64,000 nt of DNA from Minisyncoccia bacterium (GTDB lineage Bacteria; Patescibacteriota; Minisyncoccia; Phycocordibacterales; CAIZLB01). Location of the stretch: positions 70,543 to 134,542 of the forward strand of contig JBGSHK010000008.1 of assembly GCA_041752275.1 (NCBI GenBank), written 5' to 3'. Within the stretch, counting starts at the first letter, position 1. The number at the start of each line of letters is the position of its first letter. A program made the translations under genes and the position numbers. The notes under the pieces were generated by a model. It searched no databases. It saw only the letters and a program-made list of their open reading frames with translations, and had not been told where the DNA came from. Below, piece by piece: positions 10,319-59,673 of this stretch.

Positions 10319-10720
10319 ATGAATAATAAAAACTACGATCAGTGGAATATTTTAAAAAAGAGAATAAATTTTTCCCATAGAAAAATACATTATCCAAAAA
10401 TTAGAGAAATCTGGTGGATTAACATAGGTTTAAATGTTGGTTCTGAAATATATGGAAAAACAGATCAATACACTAGACCTGTTTTAATATTGAAAATACA
10501 CAATAATATGTTTATCTGTTTACCTATATCCAGTAAGATAAAAAAGGGTAGATTTAAGTTTAAGATTTATACAGATGATTTAAAGTGTCATTGTGTAATT
10601 TTTGATCAAATTCGAGTTTTTGATAGAAAAAGATTTATTAAAAGAAAGTATACAATATCTAAAAATAAATTTAAGAGAATTATAAGAAAATTTAAAAATA
10701 TGATAACCACCGGTGTTTAG
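10319..10720 (+). CDS. PemK/MazF-family toxin-like protein with no adjacent antitoxin ORF.
   Basis: REIWWINIGLNVGSE...TRPVLIL and FICLPISSK align with the MazF GDLIWVDFDPTKGSE...HRPAVVLS / CLCVPCTT blocks. Confidence 0.5.
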   Translation: MNNKNYDQWNILKKRINFSHRKIHYPKIREIWWINIGLNVGSEIYGKTDQYTRPVLILKIHNNMFICLPISSKIKKGRFKFKIYTDDLKCHCVIFDQIRVFDRKRFIKRKYTISKNKFKRIIRKFKNMITTGV

Positions 10721-12547: not shown

Positions 12548-13684
12548 ATGAAATACTTCCTCATATCAACATTTATACTCATAAACATTTTAACTCTAAA
12601 ACCTGCGCACGCAGAAGAGTTATATGTTGACTATCAAGGTACTTTTAAGGCCAAGATTTTAACAATATCAGAAGGTAGAGAAGAAAATATAGGCTTCTCT
12701 GATGTCTTGGCAAAATATCAAAACCTGGAAGTTAAGTTTTTAAACGGACCTAAGAAAGATCAAACTATAGCTTTTGAATCTGATTTTCCAAATATAAAAG
12801 AAGGTCAAAAAATATATATAAATTACAATATAAACTCTGGAAATGATGTTTACACTATTACAAATATAGATAGAGTAAATTCTATATTATTTTTTGTATT
12901 ACTTTTTATATTGATAATAATATTGTTCGGTGGCTGGCAAGGTTTTAGATCCGTCATCTCTCTAGGTTTTTCTTTTGTTGCGATATTTTACATACTTTTA
13001 CCAATACTTCTAAAAGGTTATAACCCTATATTGTCGAGTTTTGTCATAGCTGCTGCTATACTGTTTTTAGCCATATTTTTCACACATGGTTTTAACAAAG
13101 AGTCAGGCGTTGCTTATGGTGGAACCATGATAGCTGTATTACTTACATCTCTCCTGGCCATGGCTGCTGTTAAAATAACAAATCTTTCAGGTTTTACAGG
13201 TGATGAGTCAACGTATCTAAATATGAATACTGGAGGTGTACTTGATTTCTCCGGCTTGCTCTTGGCAGCTATGATAGTTGGTGTACTAGGAGTATTGGAT
13301 GATATTGCTGTGACGCAAGCATCTGTAGTGACTGAACTTTTCCACACAGATAGATCTTTGACCAGAAGACAAGTTTATCTCAAAGCTATAAGGGTTGGAA
13401 AAGAGCATGTGTCAGCTTTGGTAAATACTTTAGTCTTGGCTTATGTTGGTACAGCTTTACCTTTGTTACTTCTCATAAAAACATATGGATATGATATGCA
13501 AACAATACTCAATATGGAAGGTGTTTCAACCGAGATTATAAGAGCTATAGTTGGAAGTATTGGTTTGATTATGACTGTACCTATTGTGACTTTGCTGGCT
13601 GTGTTTTATTTGAAAAATTATGAACATAAGAAAGATAGAAAAGGGCATGGGCATAGTCACTCTCACAGTCACTCACACCAATAA
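12548..13684 (+). CDS. Polytopic membrane protein (YibE/F-like) with a secreted N-domain and a C-terminal (HS)n His-rich tail.
   Basis: Signal peptide, then a soluble domain, then about 6-7 TM helices. C-terminus KGHGHSHSHSHSHQ. Confidence 0.4.
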   Translation: MKYFLISTFILINILTLKPAHAEELYVDYQGTFKAKILTISEGREENIGFSDVLAKYQNLEVKFLNGPKKDQTIAFESDFPNIKEGQKIYINYNINSGNDVYTITNIDRVNSILFFVLLFILIIILFGGWQGFRSVISLGFSFVAIFYILLPILLKGYNPILSSFVIAAAILFLAIFFTHGFNKESGVAYGGTMIAVLLTSLLAMAAVKITNLSGFTGDESTYLNMNTGGVLDFSGLLLAAMIVGVLGVLDDIAVTQASVVTELFHTDRSLTRRQVYLKAIRVGKEHVSALVNTLVLAYVGTALPLLLLIKTYGYDMQTILNMEGVSTEIIRAIVGSIGLIMTVPIVTLLAVFYLKNYEHKKDRKGHGHSHSHSHSHQ

Positions 13685-19303: not shown

Positions 19304-19879
19304 TTATTTAGTATTCATATACTCCCTTATACCTGGAAATACTTGTATTTTATCAAACGGATATAGACGTAATAAAACTCTACCTTCTATAGCTTCTTTT
19401 GTTACAGGACCCCAATAACGAGAATCAAAACTAGCAAATCTGTTATCACCCATGACAAAATATTCATCTTTCTTTAGATTTATTAAAGGTGAAGTTTTTG
19501 GACTTTTGTAATAAATAAAATTCTCAGGTATTAATTCATTATTAATAAAAGTATTATCATCTTTAACTTCTATTTTTTCACCTGGTTTTGAAATAATTCT
19601 TTTTATAAATCTATTTGTATTTTCAGCTTCTGCTGGAGGGTTGAAAACTACAACGTCACCTTTTTCTGGGTTTTTGAATCTATAAGATATTTTGTCCACT
19701 ATAACATAGTCACCGTTTTTGAAAGTATTATCCATAGATGAGCCTGAAACCGTATGAGGTTCAAGAATAAATACTCTAAAAATAACAATAAAAACCAGTA
19801 TTATAAAGAAACTTGTCCAAGACATGTCTCCACTCTTATTTTTAGGTTTTGAAATGTTTATATTGTCTATTTCACTCAT
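19304..19879 (-). CDS. lepB: Signal peptidase I.
   Basis: SGSSMDNTF (Ser box) and GDNRFASFDSRYWG (GDNR box). Confidence 0.85.
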   Translation of the reverse strand: MSEIDNINISKPKNKSGDMSWTSFFIILVFIVIFRVFILEPHTVSGSSMDNTFKNGDYVIVDKISYRFKNPEKGDVVVFNPPAEAENTNRFIKRIISKPGEKIEVKDDNTFINNELIPENFIYYKSPKTSPLINLKKDEYFVMGDNRFASFDSRYWGPVTKEAIEGRVLLRLYPFDKIQVFPGIREYMNTK

Positions 19880-23116: not shown

Positions 23117-23151
23117 CACACGAACTATATGAGAACGTGTGCTTTATTTTT
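23117..23151. terminator. Hairpin terminator between convergent genes.
   Basis: CACACG / CGTGTG stem followed by CTTTATTTTTT. Confidence 0.45.
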
Positions 23152-24040
23152 TAAACTTAGCCTTGAAGGCTGAAGGTACTGTGATGACACCAAGATGCTT
23201 TCCAGAGACTTCATGACGATGTCGAGTGAAAGGACCTTTGCATTGGGTGTATATTGGGCAAATGTTACTCATATTTGATCCAACACATCTATTGCATCCA
23301 TATCTACCTAAGATCCAGGTTGCATTGACCGAACTGATGTCTTTTCTGAACTCTTTATGAAGCCTGGACATAAGTGGTCTCAATTCTTTTTCAAGACTTG
23401 AAACTTTTATCTGTCCCTTGCCTTTGAGAATACTAGTAGATGATACAATTGCCTGGACCCACACATCGATAGGTACTATATCAGCAAAATCAAAGTCAGA
23501 GAGTTCGCTTAAAAACATAGCTAACAAAGAAAATATTTTTACCTTTGCTCCTGGAAACAGGTTTTTGACAGCATGTTTTCTAGCAATCTTTTTGAGTTTG
23601 TGTATAAGTTCATCAATATTTGAAACTCCTTCATATATCTTTCTTGGGTCACCATTGAAAAATCGGTCCAAGTGATCCTTTCTTTTGATGAAAAAACCGA
23701 TCTCACCAAGTGGAAGTGCTGTTTGGTATTGTCGGAAGAGTTTAGTCATTTCATCAATAGAGGGAGAGAATCCGACAGTGAAGAGATGTGGATTTTCACT
23801 GAACATCAAAGCAAAGTTTCTGTAGAGAACTCTACTGTTGGTACGACGGTCTGACATAGCTACGAGAGCTAGCCAATAGATATGTTTTTCATCACCGGGT
23901 TTGAGACCAAGGGGAATGTAGAGTTTTTGAGGTCCAGAGTTCTCAGCGTTAAGGGATGAGAAGATGCCAGTTTTTTCTTTGTAAGCTCTGAAAATAAGTC
24001 GGAATATCTTTCGAAAACGAAGTTTGTTGATGGTTATCAT
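23144..24040 (-). CDS. Hypothetical protein with a C-terminal four-Cys cluster, possibly an HhH-GPD-like Fe-S DNA glycosylase.
   Basis: LFPGAK...DFADIVPIDVWV is HhH/Gly-Pro/Asp-like. C-terminal C-X2-C-X8-C-X5-C (CNRCVGSNMSNICPIYTQC). The assignment is tentative. Confidence 0.35.
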   Translation of the reverse strand: MITINKLRFRKIFRLIFRAYKEKTGIFSSLNAENSGPQKLYIPLGLKPGDEKHIYWLALVAMSDRRTNSRVLYRNFALMFSENPHLFTVGFSPSIDEMTKLFRQYQTALPLGEIGFFIKRKDHLDRFFNGDPRKIYEGVSNIDELIHKLKKIARKHAVKNLFPGAKVKIFSLLAMFLSELSDFDFADIVPIDVWVQAIVSSTSILKGKGQIKVSSLEKELRPLMSRLHKEFRKDISSVNATWILGRYGCNRCVGSNMSNICPIYTQCKGPFTRHRHEVSGKHLGVITVPSAFKAKFKK

Positions 24041-33583: not shown

Positions 33584-33904
33584 ATGAATAATATTAATTA
33601 TCGAAATGAACTTTTGCATCACAAGCTACATAGACATGCAAAACATCATGTTCATAGACTTCGAGGTAAGTCAGAGGCACATAGAAAAGCCTTTGCTTTT
33701 TCTTTTGCTTTTACTATAACTTTTGTTATTTTTACACTTTGGTATTTTTTATCTCTACCAAAGATATTGGAAAGTTATGAGGTTACCAAGTCTGAAAATG
33801 AAAGGTTAAATGAAGATATTTTTGGTAAATTAAAAAATGCATTTACAGGATCGGATATAGAAAGTGGTGGATTAAATATAGAAATTAGTGAATATAATAA
33901 ATAA
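33584..33904 (+). CDS. Small membrane protein with a His-rich N-terminus.
   Basis: HHKLHRHAKHHVHRLRG followed by one TM helix. Confidence 0.3.
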   Translation: MNNINYRNELLHHKLHRHAKHHVHRLRGKSEAHRKAFAFSFAFTITFVIFTLWYFLSLPKILESYEVTKSENERLNEDIFGKLKNAFTGSDIESGGLNIEISEYNK

Positions 33905-36269
33905 ATATATAAAAACAATGAAAACAATAAAAATAATCACATTAATCTTTATCTTCGTATCAACTTTAAGTTATAAGGGTGGTATTGAAGCGTCAGTTAT
34001 ACAGGCTGATCCAAATTATGTGGCCGAATTTGAAACTGTAGCCAACACTACTATTGATCATGACTCCAGCGTAACAAATTCAAATTTAACTACTATTGTA
34101 GAAAATGATGATAAAATCATAACATTTGCTACTTATTTTGATACAATAAATTTGAGTGGTTATTTGTATTTATTACGTCTAAACAAAGATAGAACTATAG
34201 ATAATACTTTTAGTAAATATAATTATGGTGTGCAAAATGAAACAGCTTTATATGGTCTTACAAAGCAATCAGATAGTAAACTCCTTTTAGGAGGAAGAAA
34301 CGTGGAAGGTTATGGATATAAAATATTGATTAGATTAAACGCTGACGGAACTGTTGATTCAGGTTTTAGTCAAGGTTTTAGTGATCTTGAAGATGCTGAG
34401 CAAGTAGAACAAATAATAATGCAACCCGATAATAAAATCTTAGTAAGAGGAACTTTTCTTAGATACAATGGTTTTAATAGAAAGTATTTAACACGTTTAA
34501 ATACTGATGGAACTCGTGATACAGGATTCAATTTAGGTACAGGATTTAGTTCCAGTGTATCAAATATAGTTCTACAGGATGATGGCAAAATAATAGCTGT
34601 TGGTAATTTTATAACATACAGTGGAGTATCTGCAAATCGTATAATACGTCTAAACTCTGATGGAACGAGAGATAATACTTTTGATATGGGTACAGGTTTT
34701 GATCAGAATCCTACTAAAACATTAATACAGTCTGATGGTAAAATATTAGTATTTGGGAATTTTACAACATACAACGGAGTATCCGCAAATCGAATAATAC
34801 GCCTAAATAGTGATGGAAGTAGAGATAATACTTTTGATATGGGTACAGGTTTTAATAGTAGACCAACTATAGTCTTACAAGATGATGGTAAAATATTGGC
34901 TGTCGGACATTTTATAACATACAACGGAGTATCTGCAAATCGAATAATACGTCTAAACTCTGATGGAACGAGAGATAATACTTTTGATATGGGTACAGGT
35001 TTTTCTGCTGAACCTATTTTTGTAAAAATACAATCAGATGGTAAATATTTAATTAGTGCAAGATTTCCTGGGATAACATATAACGGAGTATCTACAAATG
35101 GTTTAATACGTCTAAATACTGATGGAAGTCGTGATACTACTTTTGACATAGGTACAGGCTTTGGTGTTATTGTGTCAGAAGCAATAATACAAAACAACGG
35201 TGATATACTTGTAGGAGGATCACTTCAGAACTACAATGGTTCCCCAGTAAAAAACCTCATCCGCCTAGAAAAAGACATAGTTTCAACACCTACAAATCCA
35301 GTAGACTTAAAAACATCATCAGACACAGGAACATCAACCATAGACAATATAACAAATGACAACACTCCAACATTTACACTAGGATGTGATGCAACTGCAT
35401 ACACTGTATCTTTGTATATAAACAGTGTGTTAAATGCAACAACAACATGTTCTTCAGCTTCAGTTGACATTACTACAGCAACAACATTAACAGATGATGT
35501 ATACACAGTACAATACAGTCAATCAAATAACATAAGAGAAACAACACTTTCACCATCCATATCTGTTACTGTAGATACTACAGACCCAACAACATCTATT
35601 GTATCTGTAGATACAGACTCAACCTCACCTTACAGTAGCTTAAACACATCACCTCAAATAGCTCTATCTTCTGTTGTAGATGACACTATCTCAATACCTG
35701 ACTTCACATGTTTGCCAACACCGGCAACAAGTCTTGTTGTTGTATGTACAAGAACAACTCCATATTCAATAGGAGCTAAGACAGAGATTGTAACTATTCA
35801 AGACCTTGCAGGTAATCAGGCAACTACATCTATATCATTTAGTATAGAATCAGCACCTGTTGTCTCATCAGGTGGGGGAGGAGGTTTCTCTGGTGGTGGA
35901 TCTTCATCATCATATGTACATCCTTCACTAACATCATTTACAACAACAAATAACACTCAAGCGACATCAACACTCAACCCTATTTCAACATCAACAACTT
36001 CAACAACATCAAACATCGCAAACATCATTTTCTCAACAAATCTTAGACAAAACTCAAGAGGTCAAGATGTAAAAAACCTACAAATATTTCTAAACACTAC
36101 GGGATACATAGTCTCAACAAGAGGCAACGGATCAAAAGGAAATGAGACAAACTTCTTCGGTCCTGCAACACGTGCAGCTTTGATAAGATTTCAAAAAGCA
36201 TACAATATTAAACCTGCATACGGTTTCTTTGGACCTATTACAAGAAATGTGATCAACGGTTTGAAATAG
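33888..36269 (+). CDS. Secreted surface protein: delta-60/propeller-type repeats, Thr/Ser-rich Ig-like region, Gly linker and a C-terminal peptidoglycan-binding domain.
   Basis: Signal peptide. At least 6 repeats of ...RIIRLNSDGTRDNTFDMGTGF.... GGGGGFSGGGSSSS linker. C-terminal QDVKNLQIFLN...FFGPATRAALIRFQKAYNI is PG_binding_1-like. Confidence 0.6.
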   Translation: MNIINKYIKTMKTIKIITLIFIFVSTLSYKGGIEASVIQADPNYVAEFETVANTTIDHDSSVTNSNLTTIVENDDKIITFATYFDTINLSGYLYLLRLNKDRTIDNTFSKYNYGVQNETALYGLTKQSDSKLLLGGRNVEGYGYKILIRLNADGTVDSGFSQGFSDLEDAEQVEQIIMQPDNKILVRGTFLRYNGFNRKYLTRLNTDGTRDTGFNLGTGFSSSVSNIVLQDDGKIIAVGNFITYSGVSANRIIRLNSDGTRDNTFDMGTGFDQNPTKTLIQSDGKILVFGNFTTYNGVSANRIIRLNSDGSRDNTFDMGTGFNSRPTIVLQDDGKILAVGHFITYNGVSANRIIRLNSDGTRDNTFDMGTGFSAEPIFVKIQSDGKYLISARFPGITYNGVSTNGLIRLNTDGSRDTTFDIGTGFGVIVSEAIIQNNGDILVGGSLQNYNGSPVKNLIRLEKDIVSTPTNPVDLKTSSDTGTSTIDNITNDNTPTFTLGCDATAYTVSLYINSVLNATTTCSSASVDITTATTLTDDVYTVQYSQSNNIRETTLSPSISVTVDTTDPTTSIVSVDTDSTSPYSSLNTSPQIALSSVVDDTISIPDFTCLPTPATSLVVVCTRTTPYSIGAKTEIVTIQDLAGNQATTSISFSIESAPVVSSGGGGGFSGGGSSSSYVHPSLTSFTTTNNTQATSTLNPISTSTTSTTSNIANIIFSTNLRQNSRGQDVKNLQIFLNTTGYIVSTRGNGSKGNETNFFGPATRAALIRFQKAYNIKPAYGFFGPITRNVINGLK

Positions 36270-36304
36270 ATGATGTTGGATGTTAAGTGTGGTATGATGG
36301 TGTA

Positions 36305-37732
36305 ATGCCACAATCAAATCTATATACAAACAGAGTTTTTACAAGTCAGCTTAAGGATAAACTAGGTGAAGAGGTTCAAATATTTGGCTGGATACATGTA
36401 CGTCGCGATCAAGGTAAAATGATTTTTTTTGAGATACGCGACAAAGATGGCCTTATTCAAGCTGTTGTTTTACCAAATAAAACAGAGGCTCTTTCCATTG
36501 CAAAAAACTGTCGTGACGAATACGTTATCAAGGCAACTGGTTTGATAAATAAAAGACCTGACAAAAATGTGCAGGAAGGTGTTTTCAATGGAGACATAGA
36601 GATGGAAATAAATGAGATTACTATTATAAATGAGTCAGAGACTCCGCCTTATAACATACATGATTCGAAAGATGTAAATGAAGAAGTGAGGCTAAAATAT
36701 AGATATCTAGATCTTCGTGGAAAAAGAATGCATGAAAACATAATAATGCGTGATAAGATTATAGCTTTTTTTAGAAACTATATGAGGGCTGATGGTTTTG
36801 TTGAAATAGAAACTCCTATACTTATGAAAGGAACCCCAGAGGGTTCAAGAGAGTTTTTGGTACCATCAAGACTACATAATGGTACTTTCTATGCACTACC
36901 TCAATCACCGCAACAGTTTAAACAACTACTTATGGTATCTGGTTTTGAAAGATATTTTCAAATAGCTCGTTGTATGCGTGACGAAGATCAAAGAGGCGAT
37001 AGACAACCTGAGTTTACACAACTAGACTTCGAGATGTCATTTATTGATCAAGAAACGATACTACAATACACAGAGAAAATGTTTATAGACTTAGTTAAAG
37101 GTTTATATCCAAATAAAAAGTTTACAACTATACCATTTACAAGATTAACTTACGCCGAGTCTATGGAAAAGTATGGTTCTGATAAACCAGACCTTAGAGT
37201 CAACAAAGAAGATCTGGATGAATTAGCATTTTGTTGGATTACAGATTTTCCAATGTTTGAGAAAATGAAAGATGGATCCATATCAGCAGCGCACCATCCT
37301 TTTTGTTCAACACATCCTGATGATGAAGAATTGTTCATGTCGTCAAATGCAGGTGATGAAAATCTTTTGAAAATACGCGCCAACTCATATGACTTAGTTT
37401 TGAACGGTTATGAACTTTCATCGGGAAGTATACGTATACATAAAAAAGAAGTACAAAATCATGTGTTTAAACTTCTTGGTATGAATGAAGAGCAAATACA
37501 AGCTAAGTTCGGACACATGTTAGAAGCATTTACTTTTGGATGTCCACCACATGGTGGTTTTGCACCTGGTATAGACAGAGTTGTTATGCTTTTGCAAAAT
37601 GAGCCGAACATACGCGAAGTAATAGCATTTCCAAAGACTGGTGAGGCAAGAGATCTTATGACTGGAGCTCCGGCCACTATGGGTGTGGAGCAGTTGGTTG
37701 AGTTGGGTATAAAGATTGTGGAGGGAAAATAG
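36305..37732 (+). CDS. aspS: Aspartyl-tRNA synthetase, bacterial type, lacking the GAD insertion domain.
   Basis: FGWIHVRRDQG, FEIETPIL, CMRDEDQRGDRQPEFTQLDFEMSF, YGSDKPDLR and GGFAPGIDRVVMLL motifs. Only a short linker sits where the GAD domain would be. Confidence 0.85.
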   Translation: MPQSNLYTNRVFTSQLKDKLGEEVQIFGWIHVRRDQGKMIFFEIRDKDGLIQAVVLPNKTEALSIAKNCRDEYVIKATGLINKRPDKNVQEGVFNGDIEMEINEITIINESETPPYNIHDSKDVNEEVRLKYRYLDLRGKRMHENIIMRDKIIAFFRNYMRADGFVEIETPILMKGTPEGSREFLVPSRLHNGTFYALPQSPQQFKQLLMVSGFERYFQIARCMRDEDQRGDRQPEFTQLDFEMSFIDQETILQYTEKMFIDLVKGLYPNKKFTTIPFTRLTYAESMEKYGSDKPDLRVNKEDLDELAFCWITDFPMFEKMKDGSISAAHHPFCSTHPDDEELFMSSNAGDENLLKIRANSYDLVLNGYELSSGSIRIHKKEVQNHVFKLLGMNEEQIQAKFGHMLEAFTFGCPPHGGFAPGIDRVVMLLQNEPNIREVIAFPKTGEARDLMTGAPATMGVEQLVELGIKIVEGK

Positions 37733-37820
37733 AAATATATATTTCAAAATTTGCACGTGTTATAAAATAAAAACCTCTCACAGATTCGTTCCATGAGAGG
37801 TTGAAGTGTTATTTTTTATA

Positions 37821-38618
37821 TTATCGTTTACGGCGAAGTAATCCAATAATACTAAAAACACTGATGAGTATATTTGTTGATGGTTCAGGTATAACTTCAA
37901 AATTTGAGAGTATACTGTTTCCAGAAAATCCAATAGAAGTATTATCAACAGCACCCTCGAATATGCCATTCCACCCACTTCCGGAATCAACAATCACTCC
38001 GTAAATATAAGTGTTGGCCGAAAGTGGAGTACTATTTGCATGATTTAATCCACCACCAGTTATCCACTCACTTATATCAACGTTATAGTTTTCATTTGCT
38101 CCTTTACCTGTAGTCCATTGCCACAAGTTTGAAGAAATAACATTCTGTGTTTGCCATGTGTCAGTTGGTACAGCGGTATTTCCAGGATTGCTGTTGTAAA
38201 CACTTTCCCAGACGAGGAAACCACTAGTATCACCAACTGTGAAGTTGTTATTACTGTCATTATCATTCCACCACATAATCTTGATTGATGGTTGTAAATG
38301 ATTTGGTACCGTACTTGAAGAGTTTCGGAGCCAATGATATCCCAAGGTGTCAATATTTCCAAGTGTGGTTGCAGTATCAAAAGGGTTTACACCTATAGGA
38401 TTCCATTGATAAGCAAAACCTGCTTTATCTGTCGACGTTGTCAGGTTAAGCTTTAGAGAACCATCTCCGTTTAAAGGATGATTTGCAGTGATTACAGCTG
38501 TTCCGGCACCACGAATGTCATAAGGTGCCCAACCTTGAATATTTGACGGTGTAATTGTAAGGGATGCACCCTTTGCAGAGACATATATCGCCGCTATGAT
38601 AATAATTATTTTTTTCAC
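37821..38618 (-). CDS. Secreted protein with a C-terminal PEP-CTERM-like sorting signal.
   Basis: N-terminal signal peptide MKKIIIIIAAIYVSA. C-terminus VIPEPSTNILISVFSIIGLLRRKR (PEP motif, TM helix, basic tail). Confidence 0.5.
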   Translation of the reverse strand: MKKIIIIIAAIYVSAKGASLTITPSNIQGWAPYDIRGAGTAVITANHPLNGDGSLKLNLTTSTDKAGFAYQWNPIGVNPFDTATTLGNIDTLGYHWLRNSSSTVPNHLQPSIKIMWWNDNDSNNNFTVGDTSGFLVWESVYNSNPGNTAVPTDTWQTQNVISSNLWQWTTGKGANENYNVDISEWITGGGLNHANSTPLSANTYIYGVIVDSGSGWNGIFEGAVDNTSIGFSGNSILSNFEVIPEPSTNILISVFSIIGLLRRKR

Positions 38619-38732
38619 TTTACTTTGTTGTTATTTTTCAGTATCCAGCTACTTAACTAGATTACATTATAATAACATATTTTAATTATATAGTCAAAAT
38701 AAAACCATTGACACACATGTTATAATATCCCT

Positions 38733-39599
38733 ATGAATCAACAAAATTTATTTAAAAATCAATTTCAAAACACTTTAAAGACGTCTCTGCTTATGGCGGG
38801 AATATTTCTCATAGTTGGTGTTTTAGGTTATGGTATATCACTTCGAACAGGTAATATTAACTACTTATATATATTTCTAGTTATAGGTGTTATACAAAAC
38901 ATCATTGCTTATTGGTTTTCTGGATCTATAGCTATAAAGTATTCTGGAGCTATTAAGACTGATCTCAGTACTCCTGATGGTGCTAAGCTACAAAGAACTG
39001 TAGAAAGACTTTCAAATCAAGCTGGGTTACCAACTCCGGAAGTGTACATTATTCCTGATCAAAATATGAATGCTTTTGCCACAGGTAGAAATCAAGCACA
39101 TGCAAAGGTTGCAGCTACACAAGGTTTGATAAATAAACTATCTCAAGACGAACTTGACGGTGTTATGGCGCATGAATTAGCCCACATTGGAAATAAAGAC
39201 ATACTCATATCATCTATGGTTGCTGTTATGGCAGGTATGATAACTCACATGATATATATATTTGCATCAAGAGGGGAAAATAAAAATCCTATTGTTGGTA
39301 TTGCTATCATGATACTTGCTCCATTTGTTGGGTTTATGATACAGATGGCGGTTTCTCGTAGTCGAGAGTTTCAGGCTGATGCGGGTGCCGCTAAGATAAC
39401 AAACAATCCACAAGGATTGATTAATGCGCTTGAAAAGATACATCAAAACAATGTAGAACCTATGCTAAAAGCTGACGAGTCTATGGCACACATGTATATA
39501 GCAAATCCTTTCTCAGGGCAGAATAGTATAAGCAGATTTTTTATGACTCACCCACCTGTTGAGGAGAGGTTAGAGAAGTTGAGGAGTTTGTATTTTTAA
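38733..39599 (+). CDS. htpX: HtpX-like M48 zinc metalloprotease.
   Basis: HELAHIGNKD HExxH motif with TM helices. C-terminal MTHPPVEERL. Confidence 0.85.
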   Translation: MNQQNLFKNQFQNTLKTSLLMAGIFLIVGVLGYGISLRTGNINYLYIFLVIGVIQNIIAYWFSGSIAIKYSGAIKTDLSTPDGAKLQRTVERLSNQAGLPTPEVYIIPDQNMNAFATGRNQAHAKVAATQGLINKLSQDELDGVMAHELAHIGNKDILISSMVAVMAGMITHMIYIFASRGENKNPIVGIAIMILAPFVGFMIQMAVSRSREFQADAGAAKITNNPQGLINALEKIHQNNVEPMLKADESMAHMYIANPFSGQNSISRFFMTHPPVEERLEKLRSLYF

Positions 39600-50269: not shown

Positions 50270-51532
50270 ATGAAAGAAATAATCACACATTCACCAATTC
50301 AGGTCAGACCAATGGAGAATATTACCCATGAAAGATTACTTAGCTTACTTTCGGCTGAATCAGCTAATAATCTTTTAGAAGCACTCACGGAACAAGACAG
50401 AACACGTTTAGATGTGTGGAATACTTATCTTAAAAATGAGACTTTCGATGATCTATCTGAAGAGGGTAGAGATAAATTAATAACAGAATTAATTGACACC
50501 CGATACTCAATACTTGCAGATAATTATGATATTAAAATTGATAAAAGATTAGTTTTAAGAGACGATAAAGAAAACTACATTCATACATTAAAAGAAATAA
50601 TCTCTAGATTGTTTGACGAAAAAGTTTTAATAGTTAAACCTGAAAATTTTCATATATGTAAAAATTGTTCTTTTATTATTGCACCCAAAGATGCGAAAAT
50701 AACCGCCTGTCCCGACTGTTCATCTACAGATTTAAGCACAGTAGAAAAGAACGGAATGTTTTTAAATGTTGATACAGGTAAAATGTCTGAATTTGAAACC
50801 AGAGGGTTTGATGTGCTATCTGCAGAAGGGAGAAATAGAGTTAAATCTGCTATGTTGATGATGCCACTTGTAGTTAGTGTTGCAAAACATAGAGAACATG
50901 GTGTTTCTTTAGAAGAATTTGGTGTTAGTCCAGAATTTAAACTAGACCCAAAGATTTCTATAGCACTATCTGGAGCAGTTGCCAGAGAGGCGGGGATTGG
51001 AGAAGTCGGAATTTCTATACAAGGTATTGATTCATTAAAAAACAATGTTCCCTTTACTCTTTTATTAGACCCTGATACACAAACTAAATTTCTTAATATA
51101 GGAATGGTCCCTACTTTTTCAACCCCTGAATTAGAAAAATATAGCTCTTTATTTTATTTTCCTTTTTTAGCTTTGGTAATTGCCGGTAAATCAAAAAAAA
51201 TGAGTAGTGATGAAATTCAATTACAGTTAAAGCAATTTGAAAAAACAAGGACAAAGCTATCATCCTGTGTAGAGGCGCTGAGAAAAACAACAGAGACCTA
51301 TGCTGCAGGAAATATAAGTCTTACAAAAGATGAAATGAATAGACTTTCAGATACTCTTAAAGATGATTTAAAAGATGGTAAATTTAAACACGCTGTTGAA
51401 GCCATGCATAGTTTTATTTTTGATTGGCTTTCTCGTGTATATATAAATCAATGTAAAGATTCTGGGTCTAGAGCAGATCCTGAACTGCTTCAATACATAG
51501 AAAAGATTCTTTCGCCAATTTTTAAAAAATAG
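50270..51532 (+). CDS. Hypothetical protein with an internal CxxC...CxxC zinc ribbon.
   Basis: CKNCSF...CPDCSS. No other recognised domain. Confidence 0.4.
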   Translation: MKEIITHSPIQVRPMENITHERLLSLLSAESANNLLEALTEQDRTRLDVWNTYLKNETFDDLSEEGRDKLITELIDTRYSILADNYDIKIDKRLVLRDDKENYIHTLKEIISRLFDEKVLIVKPENFHICKNCSFIIAPKDAKITACPDCSSTDLSTVEKNGMFLNVDTGKMSEFETRGFDVLSAEGRNRVKSAMLMMPLVVSVAKHREHGVSLEEFGVSPEFKLDPKISIALSGAVAREAGIGEVGISIQGIDSLKNNVPFTLLLDPDTQTKFLNIGMVPTFSTPELEKYSSLFYFPFLALVIAGKSKKMSSDEIQLQLKQFEKTRTKLSSCVEALRKTTETYAAGNISLTKDEMNRLSDTLKDDLKDGKFKHAVEAMHSFIFDWLSRVYINQCKDSGSRADPELLQYIEKILSPIFKK

Positions 51533-51542
51533 TAAAGTTATT

Positions 51543-52292
51543 TTAAACAGATTTTTTTAAATATTCTAAATCTTCCGGTGTGTTAATGGTTAATATCTCA
51601 TCTTTGTCAACGATTTCAAAAGAAACATTTTTGAATTGATTGATTGCTACTTCAATTATCCTGCTAACTGCATATTCACCATTTGGCAGTTGTGGTATCA
51701 AATGTTTATTGTTCTCAAAATAATATTTATTTAAACAAATTATTCCTGTACCAGATAAGTGTCCATATTCACCAATTTCTTCTTTATTTACAGGTCTGAC
51801 ACCTAAAACTCTTTTTTTATCTGTTAGATATCCAACCTTATGTAACCCTTCATTAAACTCTCTTGTTAAAAGTAAACTAACCATAGCTTTTGTGCTTGTG
51901 TGTGTTTTAATTAACCTCTCTAATGTTTGAGGTTTAAGAAACCAGCCATTATCAGCAGGTAAAACTAAAACTAGATCAGTATTATTTGAAATTTTATTCA
52001 TTCCTGAAACAACAGCACCTAAAGTACCGTCTAAAATTTCCTGTATGGCAAATAAAATATTTGACAAATGATTTAAATTTTTTTTTACATGGTCTTCAAC
52101 ATCTTTAGATTTATAACCAATTACAATTATAATATTTTCAATTTTTAATTTGCTTACCGTATTAATAATTTTAACTAGAATAGATTGATTCTTAATTGTT
52201 GTAAGTGGTTTAGGAATTTGCCCACCCAATCTAGTACCTTTTCCTGCGGCCATTATTATTACAGATGTTTTTTTATCATTAATCATAGACAT
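51543..52292 (-). CDS. IspD/TarI/LicC-like cytidylyltransferase (NTP_transferase fold).
   Basis: N-terminal VIIMAAGKGTRLGGQIPKPL matches the AAG.G.R...PKQ signature. Overlaps the upstream gene by 14 nt, so probably one operon. Confidence 0.6.
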   Translation of the reverse strand: MSMINDKKTSVIIMAAGKGTRLGGQIPKPLTTIKNQSILVKIINTVSKLKIENIIIVIGYKSKDVEDHVKKNLNHLSNILFAIQEILDGTLGAVVSGMNKISNNTDLVLVLPADNGWFLKPQTLERLIKTHTSTKAMVSLLLTREFNEGLHKVGYLTDKKRVLGVRPVNKEEIGEYGHLSGTGIICLNKYYFENNKHLIPQLPNGEYAVSRIIEVAINQFKNVSFEIVDKDEILTINTPEDLEYLKKSV

Positions 52293-54594
52293 TATTCAAT
52301 AATACAGAAATATTTCTATTTAATAAAGTTGCAATTTCTTCTATCTTTGATTCTTTTGATGATTTTTCTAAATTGTTAATTATCTTAGAATACAAGTTTA
52401 ACATATCAAAAATTGCCATAATAATCGACTCTTTTGCAACTTCTTTATTGTAAATTTTCTCAACTTTTTTAATAATAAAATCTAATTCTTTATTTAAAAT
52501 ATTTGAATTTACTAAAATGATTCTTGATAAGAATTTTCCAATATCACAGCTATGTTTTCCTAATGCAAGCATTGGGTCAAGAAGGGTAAATTTATTTTCC
52601 AATTTAGAATAAATTATATTTTCAGGTTTAAAGTCACCAAAAATAATATCACACTTATTAAGTAGTTCAGGTTTTTCTTCTAGAATAGAATTTAGTTTAT
52701 TAATAATTTCTTTTAATTTATTTACTTCATCAGTATTACTTAAACCTAAATAATTTGGTAGGGATAATAATTTAAAATTTCTGGCACAATGATAATTTAA
52801 ATCATCAGTCTCAATTAATAAATTAGAGTCTACAGGGATATTTGTCAACAAATGGTGGGTATTTTTAAGTACGTCTAGAGTCTCAGAAACCATAGATATT
52901 GTTTCTGGGTTATATGATTTTATAATATTATCTAAGACTTCACCCTCAACTTGATCCATAAGTATCGCTGTACCATCTTCAATTAACTTAATATTTTTTG
53001 GTACATTAACACCGATTTTTGAAAGTTCAAAAAGCTGACTAGCATGTGTATTTATTCTTTTAATATCTCTAACCTGTTCTTTGGAGTCACTAAAATACAT
53101 TTTAAGTATCTTTCGGGTCACGTTCGACAATACAACTTTACTTTTTTCAGGAGTACCTATTCTGAATACTTTATCACTTAAATCGAGACCATACTGACCG
53201 TAATTTATATTAAGAATTTTCTCTTCCTCTTTGAGGATAATTTCCATTGTGTTTAAAATCACCAACCATTCCTGATCAATTATTTTTTCTTGACCACCAT
53301 TTAATATTTTTCTTGATAATTCTAACGCTTTTATTATTTCCTTGTCTTTTGATTTATCTAACCACCGATCCAGATCATTCATATCTATATTATTAATATT
53401 CCTAATATGTAAAAGATAGAAAACCGATATAGAAAATAATTTTGCAAATCTTCTCATCTGCTCATCTGAATTATTTAATCTTGAAATCTTCTTTTCACAT
53501 TCTCTGTAGTTTATTAAACTAGCCCTGTAACAATCATACTTAATATCTTGCACACTAACATCAATTTTAATTTTCTTTTTATCTATTGAAAAGAAGTGTT
53601 GATTTACTCCATGTGCTAAAATTGGACCTCGATTGAATCTCGAGATTTTTTCACTTAGTAAATCACTTAAATTATTAATACTTAAATCTAATTTAGTATC
53701 AAATTGTTCCTTAAACCTAAGTTGTAAATCACTTAATTCGGAAAAATGTGCTAGATACCCATCTGATAGAATATATAAATCGATATCGGAACAACCATTC
53801 TTAAAGAAGTGTGTGATTTGTGAACTACCCCAGATAAACATGTAAGTATCACTACCTAGAAGACCTATAACTCGCTCTCTCGCTATAAAACTTAAAAGAA
53901 CATTTCTAATAGGATTAGAATAATAAGTATCGATTCTGTGATCACCTTCATTCATTTCAATTGAAAATATAACACCTTGCCCATACAGATCTTTGTATTC
54001 CTGAATAGATTTAGACAGTTTAGATACATCAAGAGCACTATCATTTTTGGAATAAAATAAACTAATCGGCAAACCTGTTTTAACTAGTACATCTAAACCA
54101 TCAAAACAGTATCTCGGTTTCATTAGATCTTGGAGTTCAAAGTTCATTGATTCAGCGGGTTTGCAATTTCCTTCAGACACTAAAAATTTTATTGAATCAT
54201 TAAAGTCTTCATGAATCCAATCTGAACCAAGTCCAAAAACTGGGGAGAATAAGCTTACTCCTTTTAAATACTTATACTTAGATAAATCAATTTTTTGTAT
54301 AATTAAAGACGAGAACGAATAAGCTATTATAACAAATGACTTTTCAGAACTTTCTAGACTCTGTAGTAATAGTTCGATATTTTTGACTGTGTTTGTGACT
54401 GAAAATTCACCAATCTCTTCATATAGTCCAGGATGTCGGTATTCGTGAACAGTAAGACCTTTACCTCTAAGATCTGTCATGAATAAAAAATCTTTTTTTC
54501 TACCAGGAACACCTGGCAAGAAAACATATTCCACAGTCTCATTGTTTTTTTTCATATTTGAATATATTCTACTACGAAAATTACTACTTAGCAA
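52279..54594 (-). CDS. Three-domain protein: alpha/beta-hydrolase-like N-domain, minimal nucleotidyltransferase (pol-beta superfamily) domain, and a C-terminal APH/choline-kinase-like phosphotransferase.
   Basis: IAYSFSS nucleophile-elbow-like segment. NTase motif GSSQITHFFKNGCSDIDLYIL. Kinase Brenner motif IIFGDFKPENII and downstream LLDP. Confidence 0.55.
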   Translation of the reverse strand: MLSSNFRSRIYSNMKKNNETVEYVFLPGVPGRKKDFLFMTDLRGKGLTVHEYRHPGLYEEIGEFSVTNTVKNIELLLQSLESSEKSFVIIAYSFSSLIIQKIDLSKYKYLKGVSLFSPVFGLGSDWIHEDFNDSIKFLVSEGNCKPAESMNFELQDLMKPRYCFDGLDVLVKTGLPISLFYSKNDSALDVSKLSKSIQEYKDLYGQGVIFSIEMNEGDHRIDTYYSNPIRNVLLSFIARERVIGLLGSDTYMFIWGSSQITHFFKNGCSDIDLYILSDGYLAHFSELSDLQLRFKEQFDTKLDLSINNLSDLLSEKISRFNRGPILAHGVNQHFFSIDKKKIKIDVSVQDIKYDCYRASLINYRECEKKISRLNNSDEQMRRFAKLFSISVFYLLHIRNINNIDMNDLDRWLDKSKDKEIIKALELSRKILNGGQEKIIDQEWLVILNTMEIILKEEEKILNINYGQYGLDLSDKVFRIGTPEKSKVVLSNVTRKILKMYFSDSKEQVRDIKRINTHASQLFELSKIGVNVPKNIKLIEDGTAILMDQVEGEVLDNIIKSYNPETISMVSETLDVLKNTHHLLTNIPVDSNLLIETDDLNYHCARNFKLLSLPNYLGLSNTDEVNKLKEIINKLNSILEEKPELLNKCDIIFGDFKPENIIYSKLENKFTLLDPMLALGKHSCDIGKFLSRIILVNSNILNKELDFIIKKVEKIYNKEVAKESIIMAIFDMLNLYSKIINNLEKSSKESKIEEIATLLNRNISVLLNNVYD

Positions 54595-55348: not shown

Positions 55349-56392
55349 ATGTTCACAGACTTACTTTCACTTATATTTAACAGAAACCTATCGACAAGAA
55401 AAATAGAATTTGCTTTTATAGTCCACCCCAGAAACACATATGACATTTTTCGTAAATACAAATTACTAAAAATATTTCCCAAAAAGGTTGTTGATTTATT
55501 TCTACTAATAATGTGGCCGACATACGGGGGAAGTATAAAAATTGATCAAGGTGAAAAAGGTACTAAGTGGGGAGCAATTATAATAAGTCCTTTGACAGGT
55601 AAACAGATGTTAAGATACAGAAAACTAGCTGCAAACACTGTGTTTATGGCTAGTAAGCTGGCTAAAATATATGGTTCAAAAGTTATAGGATTAGGTGCAC
55701 TTACGTCAGTTGTCACAGACGGGGGAATATATGTGAGTGATAAACTAAAAGGTTTACATTTTACATCAGGTAACGGCTTAACTGCAGCAACAACATCAAA
55801 CGATATTTTAAGAATAATAAAAGATAAAAATATTACAGGACCGATATCTGTTATTGGTGCCACTGGATCAATAGGAAAGGGTATAACAAAAGTTTTGGAT
55901 GAAGGTTGTAAAAATGATTTGATATTAATCGGAAAAAATAAAGAAAGAACAATTGGTCTGGCTCATGAGTTGTCAAGAAATAATGTTATTTGTACAACTG
56001 ACATAGAAGAAAATAACAAAGCTGAAATAGTTATTGTTACAACAAGTGCAAATGGAGCAATAATTGATCATCATTTATTAAAAAATGCTAAAATAATATA
56101 TGATATAACTCAGCCAAAAAATACTCCTGATCACATAATGGAAGGTGATGCTATATCATATATAGATGGTGGCTTAATACAGTTACCTGAAAATATCAGA
56201 ATAGGTATGGACATAAGTTTACCAAAAGGAATTGCTTTTTCTTGTCTTTCTGAAACCCTGCTTATAGCCATATCAGAAAAATATTACCTAAAATCAGAAA
56301 AAGATTTAAAAATTGAAAACATTAAAGAATTGTCTAAATTAGCAATGGAAAATAATTTTAATTCTTATTTAATCCAAAATGGAAATAAATAA
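55349..56392 (+). CDS. NAD(P)-binding oxidoreductase, acyl-ACP reductase (AAR)-like / amino-acid dehydrogenase-like.
   Basis: Rossmann motif VIGATGSIGKGITKVL at mid-protein. AAR-like length and layout. Confidence 0.4.
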   Translation: MFTDLLSLIFNRNLSTRKIEFAFIVHPRNTYDIFRKYKLLKIFPKKVVDLFLLIMWPTYGGSIKIDQGEKGTKWGAIIISPLTGKQMLRYRKLAANTVFMASKLAKIYGSKVIGLGALTSVVTDGGIYVSDKLKGLHFTSGNGLTAATTSNDILRIIKDKNITGPISVIGATGSIGKGITKVLDEGCKNDLILIGKNKERTIGLAHELSRNNVICTTDIEENNKAEIVIVTTSANGAIIDHHLLKNAKIIYDITQPKNTPDHIMEGDAISYIDGGLIQLPENIRIGMDISLPKGIAFSCLSETLLIAISEKYYLKSEKDLKIENIKELSKLAMENNFNSYLIQNGNK

Positions 56393-58025
56393 TTTTTTTA
56401 CATTTGAAAACATAGTTTTAGCTTCAACTGCTTTAGTAAATTTTATATTATTTATTATAATATTTGTTAGAAGAAACAAAAGCAAAAACACTTATTTTTT
56501 TTTAGGTTTTATACTTTCTGTTATGGGTTGGGTTTTAGGAGTTTTATTTTTTAGAGTTTTAGAAGGTAAGTATTTATTACTAGTAACAAGGTTTGTTTAC
56601 TTTGCTGCAACACTTATACCTTTTTTTATAATTTTATTTACCCAAACTTTTCCTAAAAGAGATTTAGGTTTTTCAAAAAAGAAAACTATTATATTTTTAA
56701 CATTTCCCATACTATTTTTAATTCTAACATCTATACCTGGGGCTATTATCAAAGATATCAATGAAATAAATGGATATAAATCAATTATTTTTGGACCATT
56801 TTATTATTTATATTTTGTATACATAATAACTTATTTTTTGATTGGAATAATTTTGATGATAAAAAATTATTTTAAACTAAAAGGTATTGAAAGAAATCAG
56901 ATTGAAATTATATTCTTAAGTATACTAGTTTCTTCTTTCGTGGGTATGTCAACCAACTTAATTATGCCTGCATTTAATAATTTTTCTCTTTTTTGGGTTG
57001 GGCCATTTTTTAGTGGATATATGGTTTTAACAATAGGTTATGCCATGATCAAATATGGCCTGTTTAATATAAAACTTATAGCCACAGAGTTTGCAGCCCT
57101 GTCTACTTGGGTATTAATGTTTGTTAAATTGATGTTAGATGAAAGTCTAACAGATAAACTTATAGATGGTGTAGTTTTGATAATTTTAATTATAAGTGGT
57201 TTATATGTTATAAGAAGTGTTATGAAGGAAATAGAGCTTCGTGAAAAAGATGATCAACTTGTAAGTGATATGGCCGGATTGAATCAAACTCTTGAAAAAA
57301 CAAATGTAAAACTCCAAGAACTCGACCAAAAAAAGTCCGAGTTCATGTCACTTGCCACCCATCAACTCCGCGCACCCTTAACCGCCATGCGTGGATACTA
57401 CTCCATGATACAAGATGGAACTTTTGGTAAGATCAACAACCCTGAACTAGAAGATGTCATCGGTAAAATTTCACGCTCAACTACAGACCTAACCATGATA
57501 GTGGAGGACTATCTTAACATCTCACGTATAGAGCAAGGTAAAATGCAATACAATTTTGTAAGTATAGACGTTGCAGAAATAGTGCAGGATGTTGTGAAAG
57601 AGGTAACTCCAACTGTTGCACATGCGGGACTCAAACTAAATTTGGAATATGATCAAAAACAAAAATATATTGTAACTGTAGATAAAGGAAAAATTAAACA
57701 AGTTATATTTAACATAATAGATAACTCTATAAAATACACACCAAAGGGGAGTGTGGACATTTCTATCAAGAAAACAGATAGTGATAAAAAAGTTGTTATA
57801 TCCATTAAAGACACAGGTGTTGGCATAAAACCAACTGTATTACCTCAATTATTTCAAAAATTTACCCGAGCACCGGATGCATCTGAAACAAATATACTTG
57901 GTACAGGACTTGGTTTATATGTTGCAGATCAAATACTGAAGGCACATCATGGTCGAGCATGGGCCGAGTCAGAAGGTCAAGGGAAAGGGTCTCAATTTTA
58001 TATAGAATTAAACTTATTAAAATAA
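56379..58025 (+). CDS. 7TM-receptor sensor histidine kinase (paralog A).
   Basis: Seven N-terminal TM helices. Coiled coil. H-box LATHQLRAPLTAMRGY. HATPase IKDTGVGIK and GTGLGLY. Confidence 0.7.
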   Translation: MEINNFFTFENIVLASTALVNFILFIIIFVRRNKSKNTYFFLGFILSVMGWVLGVLFFRVLEGKYLLLVTRFVYFAATLIPFFIILFTQTFPKRDLGFSKKKTIIFLTFPILFLILTSIPGAIIKDINEINGYKSIIFGPFYYLYFVYIITYFLIGIILMIKNYFKLKGIERNQIEIIFLSILVSSFVGMSTNLIMPAFNNFSLFWVGPFFSGYMVLTIGYAMIKYGLFNIKLIATEFAALSTWVLMFVKLMLDESLTDKLIDGVVLIILIISGLYVIRSVMKEIELREKDDQLVSDMAGLNQTLEKTNVKLQELDQKKSEFMSLATHQLRAPLTAMRGYYSMIQDGTFGKINNPELEDVIGKISRSTTDLTMIVEDYLNISRIEQGKMQYNFVSIDVAEIVQDVVKEVTPTVAHAGLKLNLEYDQKQKYIVTVDKGKIKQVIFNIIDNSIKYTPKGSVDISIKKTDSDKKVVISIKDTGVGIKPTVLPQLFQKFTRAPDASETNILGTGLGLYVADQILKAHHGRAWAESEGQGKGSQFYIELNLLK

Positions 58026-58026: not shown

Positions 58027-59673
58027 ATGATTTTACACGAAATAGTAACAATTGAATCAGTAGCTTTATTGTCTACAGCTTTTTTAAATATAGTACTTTT
58101 TATTATTTTAATAACAAATGATAAAAAAAACAAAAATATATATTTTTTTTCAGGATTTATATTTTCCATGTTTTTTTGGGTAGCAAACACTTTTTTATTT
58201 TATATAATAAATGATAAAGATGTTTTACTGATAAATACTCATCTAATATACCTAGCACCACCTTTTATACCTGTTTTCATGATACTTTTTGCAAAAACTT
58301 TTCCCAAAGAAAAATTAAATTTTTCAAGAAGAAAACTGGCTATTTTTCTAACCCCTGCTTTTATTGTTTCTACAATATCTTTGATACCCAATGCTGTTAT
58401 AGACGATGTTGTTATCATAAATGAATATTATAAATATATTACATATGGACCTTTATATCCTTTATATTTTATATATATAACATTTTATTTTTACATGGTT
58501 ATAGATGTAATGATTAGAAAATATTTAATACTTAAAGGTTTACAAAGAAATCAAGTTGAAACCATTTTCTTAACATTAATTATAGGTTCTTTTGTTGGTG
58601 TATTTTCAAGTTTAATCATGCCAACATATGGAAATTTTGATTTATTCTGGGTAGGATCTTTTTATAGTGGATACTTAGCCGTTGCAGCATTTTATGGAAT
58701 AATAAAATATGGTCTTTTTGACATAAAACTTGTAGCAACGGAGTTCTTAGCTTTTTCAACATGGGTATTGTTACTTATAAAAATATTTTTTAATGATAGT
58801 TTACAGAACAGAATAATAGACTCAGTAATCCTTGTAATAATAATTATATCCAGTATATTATTAATAAAAACAGTTAAAAAAGAGATAAAATTAAGAGAGA
58901 AAGATGACACATTACTAATTGATATAACCAATTTGAATGCAAGACTCGAAAACACAAACATAAAACTTAAAGAGTTAGACCAAAAAAAATCTGAATTTAT
59001 ATCATTGGCAACACATCAGCTTAGAACACCATTAACTTCGATGAAAGGATATTCTTCCATGTTACTTGATGGAACTTTTGGTAAAATAAATAATCCAGAA
59101 ATAGAGGAAGCTATAAGTAAAATACATAGATCATCTATAGATTTATCTATGATAGTTGAAGACTATTTAAACATATCACGTATAGAGCAAGGTAAAATGC
59201 AATACAATATTTCAAGTATAAATTTAATAGATTTAATAAAAAATATTTTAGAGGAATTTAAATCTACAGCAAACAGATTACATCTTAATTTAAATTTACA
59301 TTATGATAATAATTTTGATTATAAAATAAGAGCTGATGAAGGTAAAATAAAACAAGTTTTTGTAAACATTATAGACAATGCCATTAAATATACTCCAGCA
59401 GGGGATATTGATGTTTTTATAGAAAAAATAGATGCACAAAAGAAAATATTAGTTAGAATAAAAGATACAGGAATAGGTATAAAAAAAGAAGTTTTACCAA
59501 ATCTTTTTCACAAATTTGTTCGAGCGCCGGACGCATCTCGTGTTAATATACTTGGTACAGGATTAGGACTTTACGCTGCAGGGGAAATATTAAAAGCTCA
59601 CAAATCTCGCGCATGGGTAGAATCAAACGGTGAAGGACATGGGTCAACTTTTTATGTAGAGATAAATATTTAA
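58027..59673 (+). CDS. 7TM-receptor sensor histidine kinase (paralog B). Same length as A and a tandem duplicate of it.
   Basis: Architecture collinear with 56379-58025. H-box LATHQLRTPLTSMKGY. HATPase IKDTGIGIK and GTGLGLY. Confidence 0.7.
   Translation: MILHEIVTIESVALLSTAFLNIVLFIILITNDKKNKNIYFFSGFIFSMFFWVANTFLFYIINDKDVLLINTHLIYLAPPFIPVFMILFAKTFPKEKLNFSRRKLAIFLTPAFIVSTISLIPNAVIDDVVIINEYYKYITYGPLYPLYFIYITFYFYMVIDVMIRKYLILKGLQRNQVETIFLTLIIGSFVGVFSSLIMPTYGNFDLFWVGSFYSGYLAVAAFYGIIKYGLFDIKLVATEFLAFSTWVLLLIKIFFNDSLQNRIIDSVILVIIIISSILLIKTVKKEIKLREKDDTLLIDITNLNARLENTNIKLKELDQKKSEFISLATHQLRTPLTSMKGYSSMLLDGTFGKINNPEIEEAISKIHRSSIDLSMIVEDYLNISRIEQGKMQYNISSINLIDLIKNILEEFKSTANRLHLNLNLHYDNNFDYKIRADEGKIKQVFVNIIDNAIKYTPAGDIDVFIEKIDAQKKILVRIKDTGIGIKKEVLPNLFHKFVRAPDASRVNILGTGLGLYAAGEILKAHKSRAWVESNGEGHGSTFYVEINI

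Follow-up and report, generated by a model that had tools for sequence, protein, structure and literature searches.

Among described systems that sort proteins by a C-terminal signal, the one closest to the case presented here is PEP-CTERM/exosortase (EpsH, XrtA), whose hosts possess an outer membrane and genes for exopolysaccharide (EPS) production and carry a median of eight PEP-CTERM proteins per genome (PMC1569441). A comparable system, PGF-CTERM/ArtA, operates in single-membrane archaea such as Haloferax volcanii (10.1101/2023.06.07.544157), and classical sortases occur in more than half of the genomes of the Candidate Phyla Radiation (CPR), a group proposed to have a Gram-positive-like envelope without an outer membrane (PMC6744442). 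Here we describe a gene from a 64,000-nucleotide stretch of contig JBGSHK010000008.1 (assembly GCA_041752275.1), a contig that is assigned by its proteins to the Parcubacteria, within the CPR; the whole stretch, at its full length of 64 kb, is referred to below as the window. In form and ancestry the 265-aa product of this gene is a PEP-CTERM protein, in an unexpected host. We see about an even chance that it is an exported, C-terminally anchored, glycan-binding surface protein whose inherited PEP-CTERM tail now likely serves as a plain, uncleaved stop-transfer anchor. The gene and its parts lie as follows:

37821..38618, minus strand: PEP-CTERM-tailed surface-protein gene, GTG start, 265 aa, stop codon at 37821-37823
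38574..38618, minus strand: predicted signal peptide, approximately residues 1-15 (MKKIIIIIAAIYVSA), with a putative signal peptidase I site after V-S-A, read heuristically from the sequence
37899..38570, minus strand: ectodomain, residues 17-240, modeled as a beta-sandwich or jelly roll resembling carbohydrate-binding modules (CBMs), of an unnamed family
37881..37889, minus strand: PEP motif P244-E245-P246 (CCT GAA CCA), in the coil that links the last strand to the transmembrane (TM) helix
37836..37880, minus strand: hydrophobic TM segment, residues 247-261 (STNILISVFSIIGLL), a C-terminal TM segment by the Kyte-Doolittle scale, with the modeled helix at 248-263
37824..37835, minus strand: RRKR, the last four residues (262-265), a basic cluster that the sister genome retains through 4 synonymous codon changes

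In its layout the protein conforms to the PEP-CTERM/exosortase pattern (Haft et al., 2006; PMC1569441): a signal peptide, PEP, a TM helix and an Arg/Lys cluster are combined in the product of a single-gene transcription unit, and the full-length homologs of that product lie in genomes rich in PEP-CTERM genes. The setting, however, differs from that of the described system. The host belongs to the CPR, proposed to lack an outer membrane (PMC6744442); there is one gene, with no exosortase seen in the 64 kb of the window or in ~40 kb of a sister genome; the intergenic DNA upstream amounts to 114 nt, where the described system has a large region; and the tail is glycine-poor and falls just under both curated cut-offs for the signal. 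The PGF-CTERM/ArtA system of H. volcanii shares with this locus a tripartite C-terminal signal, a surface protein and, in all probability, a single-membrane cell, but the motif here is PEP rather than PGF, the host is bacterial, and no archaeosortase homolog was found in the same 64 kb and ~40 kb. The PGF-CTERM model PF18204 does not match the window tail and scores the sister tail at 13.4 bits (cut-off 18.8). Should a sortase exist in this organism, ArtA-style helix removal coupled to lipid attachment would probably be the most relevant working model (10.1101/2023.06.07.544157). Finally, the LPXTG/sortase A system, common in CPR, offers the same tripartite arrangement of motif, TM helix and basic tail in a Gram-positive-like envelope, but a regular-expression scan of C-termini recovered no LPXTG-type motif in this protein or in any window protein, and none of the scanned window proteins was identified as a sortase.

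The original prediction for this locus, a 265-aa minus-strand product ending in PEP, a hydrophobic helix and RRKR, is borne out by translation of the open reading frame (ORF) at 37821-38618 and by two independent public assemblies. The C-terminus reads ...FEVIPEPSTNILISVFSIIGLLRRKR (also written ...NFEVIPEPSTNILISVFSIIGLLRRKR), with its elements in the order VIPEP-STNILISVFSIIGLL-RRKR-stop. The identical 265-aa protein is called both in the NCBI contig (144,578 bp) and in a Logan contig from SRR28170465, and its gene has the same neighbors in the two assemblies. The N-terminus (MKKIIIIIAAIYVSA, followed by KG) looks like a Sec signal peptide: a basic n-region (MKK) leads into a core of 10-12 hydrophobic residues and then a V-S-A site, and this site is aligned in register with the AxA signal-peptide sites of homologs. 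On these heuristic grounds the signal peptide is, as had been proposed, probably cleavable. In an AlphaFold model residues 1-15 have pLDDT values below 50, and the first strand begins at residue 17. No other window protein pairs a signal peptide with a C-terminal TM segment.

The earlier description of the tail as a textbook PEP-CTERM signal holds for its tripartite order and for its homology to tails recognized by the curated models, but not for its own score against those models. Pfam and NCBIfam scans permitting E-values of up to 10 gave no match for the full-length protein. On its own, the tail matches the PEP-CTERM models and no others; it covers them end to end, at 15.1 bits for PF07589 (cut-off 20.7) and 15.0 bits for TIGR02595 (cut-off 16), and so lies below both curated cut-offs. 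The tail of the closest relative, a protein of 59% identity from the sister genome (P0002), passes both, at 24.1 and 16.6 bits respectively. A single-sequence search returned four homologs, down to 37% identity (with E-values of 1e-26 and 2e-19), all of which end in NFEV[IV]PEP, a hydrophobic stretch and a basic cluster, and a profile search extended the family to at least 405 proteins. Every one of the 120 members listed (of the at least 405) ends in V[VI]PEP, a TM segment and a basic cluster; most of these 120 carry a precomputed PF07589 match, and some are named 'PEP-CTERM putative exosortase interaction domain'. Against loci of diderm bacteria, tblastn gave E-values from 4e-37 to 1e-20, the first of these to a Chthoniobacterales PEP-CTERM protein. 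In the alignment the window tail is glycine-poor relative to the tails of its family. Because of this family-wide homology to tails that pass PF07589, the sequence evidence identifies the window tail as PEP-CTERM by descent, and because the glycines typical of these helices have been lost, as a somewhat degenerate one. We therefore prefer the label 'PEP-CTERM-derived', the tail being a narrow operational miss of the hidden Markov model criterion for membership.

The original prediction had also named a scenario under which the tail would be a fortuitous C-terminal TM anchor that resembles PEP-CTERM by chance. The sub-threshold scores of the window tail for PF07589 and TIGR02595 fit such a scenario, as does the lack of a family match for the full-length protein. 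It is refuted, however, by homology: ectodomain and tail together are homologous over the full length to the at least 405 family proteins, the same ending recurs in all 120 of those listed, the Chthoniobacterales match is to a PEP-CTERM protein, and the sister tail passes both cut-offs. We accord a chance resemblance next to no credence.

Between signal peptide and tail, the ectodomain (~225 residues) models as a jelly roll of carbohydrate-binding, lectin or polysaccharide-lyase type. The modeled fold resembles CBM22, CBM16, CBM11, CBM30 and CBM4, at ~10-14% identity and with moderate scores; typical beta-jelly-roll CBM domains are smaller than this ectodomain, and no sequence-level family match accompanies the resemblance here. 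The fold and the many invariant aromatic residues suggest glycan binding, and a catalytic, lyase-like role is also possible. In a 40-sequence alignment the window protein (P0001) keeps all 31 of the family-invariant columns. The family as a whole (at least 405 members, mostly from Armatimonadota and from the Planctomycetes-Verrucomicrobia-Chlamydiae (PVC) group) is marked by the conserved signature GSGW...F.GA.DN, and Trp is invariant at many positions. Pfam and NCBIfam cover these proteins only at the PEP-CTERM tail; the ectodomain, with its CBM-like fold, defines a family of at least 405 members that both resources have yet to model.

The host is a less familiar one for such a protein. The window has a GC content of 31%, and its aspartyl-tRNA synthetase (AspRS), RNase R and ABC-F proteins each fall in a cluster, at 90% identity or more, with proteins of 'Candidatus Parcubacteria bacterium'; the host is by this evidence a Parcubacteria (CPR) bacterium, in agreement with the CPR-like lineage suggested earlier from the sequence, and its taxonomy points to a single-membrane envelope. 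The neighboring 793-aa exported protein described below, which ends in a peptidoglycan-binding domain, is in keeping with this placement. Of the window proteins scanned, none pointed to outer-membrane biogenesis or EPS export. By contrast, all 32 of the family loci in species-representative genomes, a set that includes neither the window genome nor GCA_040384245.1, belong to GC-rich bacteria (50-71% GC), and the carriers comprise Armatimonadota (Fimbriimonadales), Verrucomicrobiota, Planctomycetota (Phycisphaerae), two Proteobacteria and a few metagenome-assembled genomes labeled only 'bacterium'. In diderm loci the gene stands among other PEP-CTERM genes, with up to 11 PEP tails per 14 kb, and the tails within one diderm genome are near-identical. 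One other low-GC genome carries the gene, the sister genome GCA_040384245.1 (locus L002), and it does so in the same slot between AspRS and an M48/HtpX gene. The slot and its surroundings in the window are these:

37733..38665, no strand assigned: variable slot between AspRS and the M48 promoter, with an approximate right-hand boundary
36287-37732: AspRS, the left flank of the slot, convergent with the PEP-tail gene
38733-39599: M48/HtpX gene, the right flank of the slot, divergent from the PEP-tail gene
37772..37802, minus strand: hairpin resembling an intrinsic terminator, a 13-bp stem followed by a T-run, starting 19 nt past the stop codon
38669..38714, minus strand: two overlapping sigma-70-like promoter matches (10/12), a consensus match only

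The terminator-like hairpin sits between the convergent AspRS and PEP-tail genes. The promoter-like matches fall in the 114-nt divergent intergenic region common to the PEP-tail and M48/HtpX genes, a region that the conserved M48 promoter also occupies. In relatives whose AspRS is 91-96% identical, the slot holds unrelated small cytoplasmic genes or a PemK toxin gene; homology between genomes ends just past the AspRS stop codon and returns with the conserved M48 promoter, ~70 nt before the M48 start. Base composition sets the gene apart as well. In L002 its GC content at third codon positions (GC3), 0.59, is the highest of 16 genes (the rest range from 0.25 to 0.54); in the window its GC3 of 0.27, against a window mean of 0.21, lies 1.6 standard deviations above that mean, and its GC content at first and second positions (GC1+2) lies 1.9 standard deviations above. 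Because the family is otherwise found in GC-rich diderms, the slot is variable in relatives and the gene is a GC outlier, we regard it as an accessory gene of foreign origin, acquired horizontally. A neighbor-joining tree places the two low-GC proteins in one clade nested within the diderm family, with a Chthoniobacterales protein as the nearest neighbor, and the simplest reading would have this Parcubacteria lineage acquire the gene once, from a donor of PVC/Armatimonadota type.

A GC content above that of the surroundings, in a gene whose other family members are all in diderms, might also be produced by an assembly chimera or by contamination, that is, by a diderm gene binned into a CPR contig. 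We think this extremely improbable, however: the same gene and flanks appear in two independent assemblies, a 59%-identical ortholog occupies the same AspRS-M48 slot of a second low-GC genome, the GC3 of 0.27 is near the window mean and far from the overall 50-71% GC of the donors, and the intergenic DNA on either side runs without a break into conserved Parcubacteria sequence.

Several further observations concern the slot and its flanks. The M48/HtpX protease was considered as a dedicated processing enzyme for the tail and rejected, since it has the same place and promoter in relatives without the PEP gene. In L002 two extra genes flank the PEP-tail gene within the slot: one at 6154-6492, a 112-aa ORF broken by a run of N, and one at 7811-8602, which encodes a cytoplasmic-looking protein of 263 aa with no Pfam match on record. 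The content of the slot therefore differs even between the two carriers. A PemK-family toxin-like gene elsewhere in the window (10319-10720, plus strand) closely resembles, in a comparison of N-termini, the slot PemK of the relative L037 (5892-6293), and toxin cassettes appear to shift between variable slots in this lineage. On the far side of AspRS, between it and a Lactamase_B_3 gene, the window encodes a 793-aa exported protein (33888-36269, plus strand) in which seven beta-propeller repeats of the DUF5122/delta-60 type are combined with an Ig-like Big_13 domain and, at the C-terminus, PG_binding_1. Its position in the close relatives L037 (3368-3685) and L040 (9671-9994) is taken by a small gene of ~105 aa only; AspRS is thus flanked on both sides by lineage-specific insertions of surface-protein genes.

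The comparison between the window and L002 also bears on whether the gene is maintained. Synonymous divergence (dS) is saturated for every gene tested, and for the PEP-tail gene the nonsynonymous divergence (dN) is 0.35, with a Nei-Gojobori (NG86) dN/dS ratio that is not computable because dS is saturated. Across this distance N-F-E-V-x-P-E-P-S and G-L-L-R-R-K-R are identical in the two proteins, through 10 synonymous codon differences, whereas the TM core, which contains an indel, agrees at 1 of its 11 aligned positions. In the AlphaFold model the PEP motif lies in a coil outside the fold, between the last strand (234-240) and the helix (248-263). Because the motif and the basic cluster are identical despite saturated dS, and because PEP lies outside the fold, the sequence comparison argues that both are under purifying selection in the CPR lineage.

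Such conservation is difficult to reconcile with a decaying relic of the transfer that has no function in this host. A relic would be in keeping with a single copy in a variable slot, with a tail score below threshold and with the absence of the gene from closer relatives. Yet the ORF is intact in two genomes separated by saturated dS and a dN of 0.35, all 31 family-invariant columns are kept, codon usage has been ameliorated in the window, and the gene has terminator-like and promoter-like sites of its own. We judge decay to be improbable.

Whether the tail is cleaved turns largely on the presence of a sorting enzyme. Consistent with what had been reported earlier for the window, a check of its ORFs of 120 aa and longer for which at least three TM segments are predicted turned up no exosortase; the products of these ORFs are a YibE/F protein, three histidine kinases, a P-type ATPase, an Nramp protein, an ABC transporter, a DUF1761 protein, the M48 protease and a fatty-acid-hydroxylase-like protein. 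The sister contig (~40 kb; L002 and L044) yielded neither an exosortase or other multi-TM candidate nor another PEP tail. Additional substrates are likewise missing from the sequence inspected. A tail-pattern search of 289 six-frame, stop-to-stop ORFs of at least 50 aa retrieved this ORF and one spurious 52-aa ORF with a non-hydrophobic tail, leaving no second PEP-CTERM gene in the 64-kb window, and no further PEP tails were found in the loci of relatives. An exhaustive phmmer search of 1.84 billion representatives that used the 30-aa tail as query, and in which a match needs ~34 bits per tail, found no proteins sharing the window tail; its matches were only read-through concatenations of diderm PEP-CTERM genes. 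In the literature searched there was no link of exosortase or PEP-CTERM with CPR, and no term for an exosortase-type family occurs in the supplementary tables of a survey of CPR protein families (PMC6744442).

Two byproducts of these searches deserve mention. Matches P0178-P0185 are 'proteins' of 1,198-2,500 aa with 4-10 complete PEP-CTERM tails in series, and seem to result from gene calling across successive PEP-CTERM genes; the exception, P0180, is unrelated, a protein of 74-aa tandem repeats in which VPEP occurs. Small proteins with 7-9 TM segments beside PEP-CTERM genes, in loci of Armatimonadota and other diderms, were considered as candidate exosortases and rejected: one is a zinc ABC permease and one a ClC channel, and the remaining 7-9-TM neighbors in diderm loci have no NCBIfam match.

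Given this distribution of evidence, uncleaved anchoring is the explanation we favor, at the even chance stated above. The protein would be exported through Sec by its N-terminal signal peptide, which signal peptidase I would then remove (an S26 peptidase is encoded at 19304-19879); the ~225-residue CBM-like beta-jelly-roll ectodomain would fold outside the cell, and the C-terminal helix, with RRKR in the cytoplasm, would hold the protein in the cell's only membrane. In donor-type systems an exosortase cleaves at PEP (PMC1569441); here the tail would act as a stop-transfer anchor without cleavage, and the glycan-binding module would be displayed on the surface, plausibly for attachment to a host cell or to a matrix polysaccharide. 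The absence of cleavage is favored because the gene is a lone foreign cassette, because neither an enzyme nor co-substrates are visible, because the cell is proposed to have no outer membrane, and because the tail is drifting from the model.

Several considerations weigh against this explanation. P-E-P-S is fully kept despite saturated synonymous sites and turnover of the TM core; a plain anchor would not obviously need PEP, which in the model lies outside the fold, and retention of the motif is not well explained by simple anchoring. The inspection for exosortases covered only the 64-kb window and ~40 kb of one sister genome, and the phmmer search with the tail is insensitive to diverged tails—the window protein itself was not recovered, presumably because it is represented by another cluster member. 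Glycan binding is assigned from a fold similarity that comes with moderate scores and ~10% identity, and the neighbor-joining tree has no support values.

It is possible, therefore, although we are doubtful of it, that an exosortase/archaeosortase-family enzyme or another intramembrane sorting protease is encoded elsewhere in the genome, cleaves at PEP and re-anchors the protein, for example to lipid. Conservation is the principal argument for this possibility: P-E-P-S and G-L-L-R-R-K-R have persisted through 10 synonymous differences and saturated dS while the TM core turned over with an indel, the position of PEP outside the folded domain means that folding does not explain this persistence, and the sister tail still passes both curated cut-offs. 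There is precedent in ArtA/PGF-CTERM of monoderm archaea and in single-target sorting systems that occur once per proteome (both 10.1101/2023.06.07.544157), and the sequence in view stops at 64 kb, ~80 kb short of the whole source contig and short of the genome. However, the 64 kb and ~40 kb contain no exosortase, and one candidate substrate was found where multiples are usual (median eight; PMC1569441). The known single-target systems keep the enzyme beside its target, whereas the neighbors here are AspRS and a housekeeping M48 gene that are also present in relatives without the PEP-tail gene. The literature searched and the supplementary tables of the CPR survey offer no connection between such systems and CPR; the window tail lacks the usual glycines and is below cut-off; and the gene is a single cassette acquired horizontally from diderms in a variable slot.

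In its fullest form, this alternative would have a Parcubacteria lineage maintain a working pathway of exosortase/archaeosortase type in a single-membrane cell, either acquired with the transferred substrate or recruited for it, in which the tail is cleaved and the CBM-like adhesin re-anchored. We hold such a pathway to be slightly more doubtful again, and still consider it because P-E-P-S has been selectively retained across saturated divergence. If it were real, it would give CPR, and monoderm bacteria in general, their first sorting system of PEP-CTERM type.

The locus is of interest under either outcome. If there is no exosortase, then it shows the fate of a PEP-CTERM signal after transfer to a one-membrane cell, namely co-option as the plain anchor that we favor; if an exosortase is present, then CPR contain an undescribed sorting pathway. 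In both cases the locus documents gene flow from PVC/Armatimonadota-type bacteria to an episymbiont-type genome, and provides one more candidate, a surface adhesin or lectin, for mediating contact between CPR and host.

The window contains other genes that may merit attention in their own right. At 704-3520, a large serine recombinase (1739-3460; Resolvase and Recombinase domains) follows two small proteins, of which one weakly matches sigma-70 region 4, and the 3' end of the recombinase gene overlaps an opposite-strand tRNA gene at 3449-3520; this region looks like the edge of an integrated mobile element. Two adjacent plus-strand genes (4844-6745 and 6763-8676) encode proteins of ~635 aa whose C-terminal half holds a GH130 (mannoside phosphorylase) domain and whose N-terminal half, of ~300 aa, has no assigned domain, and the pair adjoins a phosphatase of PMM/HAD type at 4015-4770. 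Tandem paralogous histidine kinases of 548 aa, each with an N-terminal HisKA_7TM domain, are encoded one base apart at 56379-58025 and 58027-59673 (plus strand), with no response regulator noted beside them. Three further proteins, of 420 aa (50270-51532, plus strand), 771 aa (52279-54594, minus strand) and 298 aa (23144-24040, minus strand), have no Pfam match at E <= 0.001. Finally, the YibE/F-family membrane protein at 12548-13684 (plus strand) has a signal-peptide-like N-terminus and a His-rich C-terminal tail (...GHGHSHSHSHSHQ), a composition that suggests metal binding.

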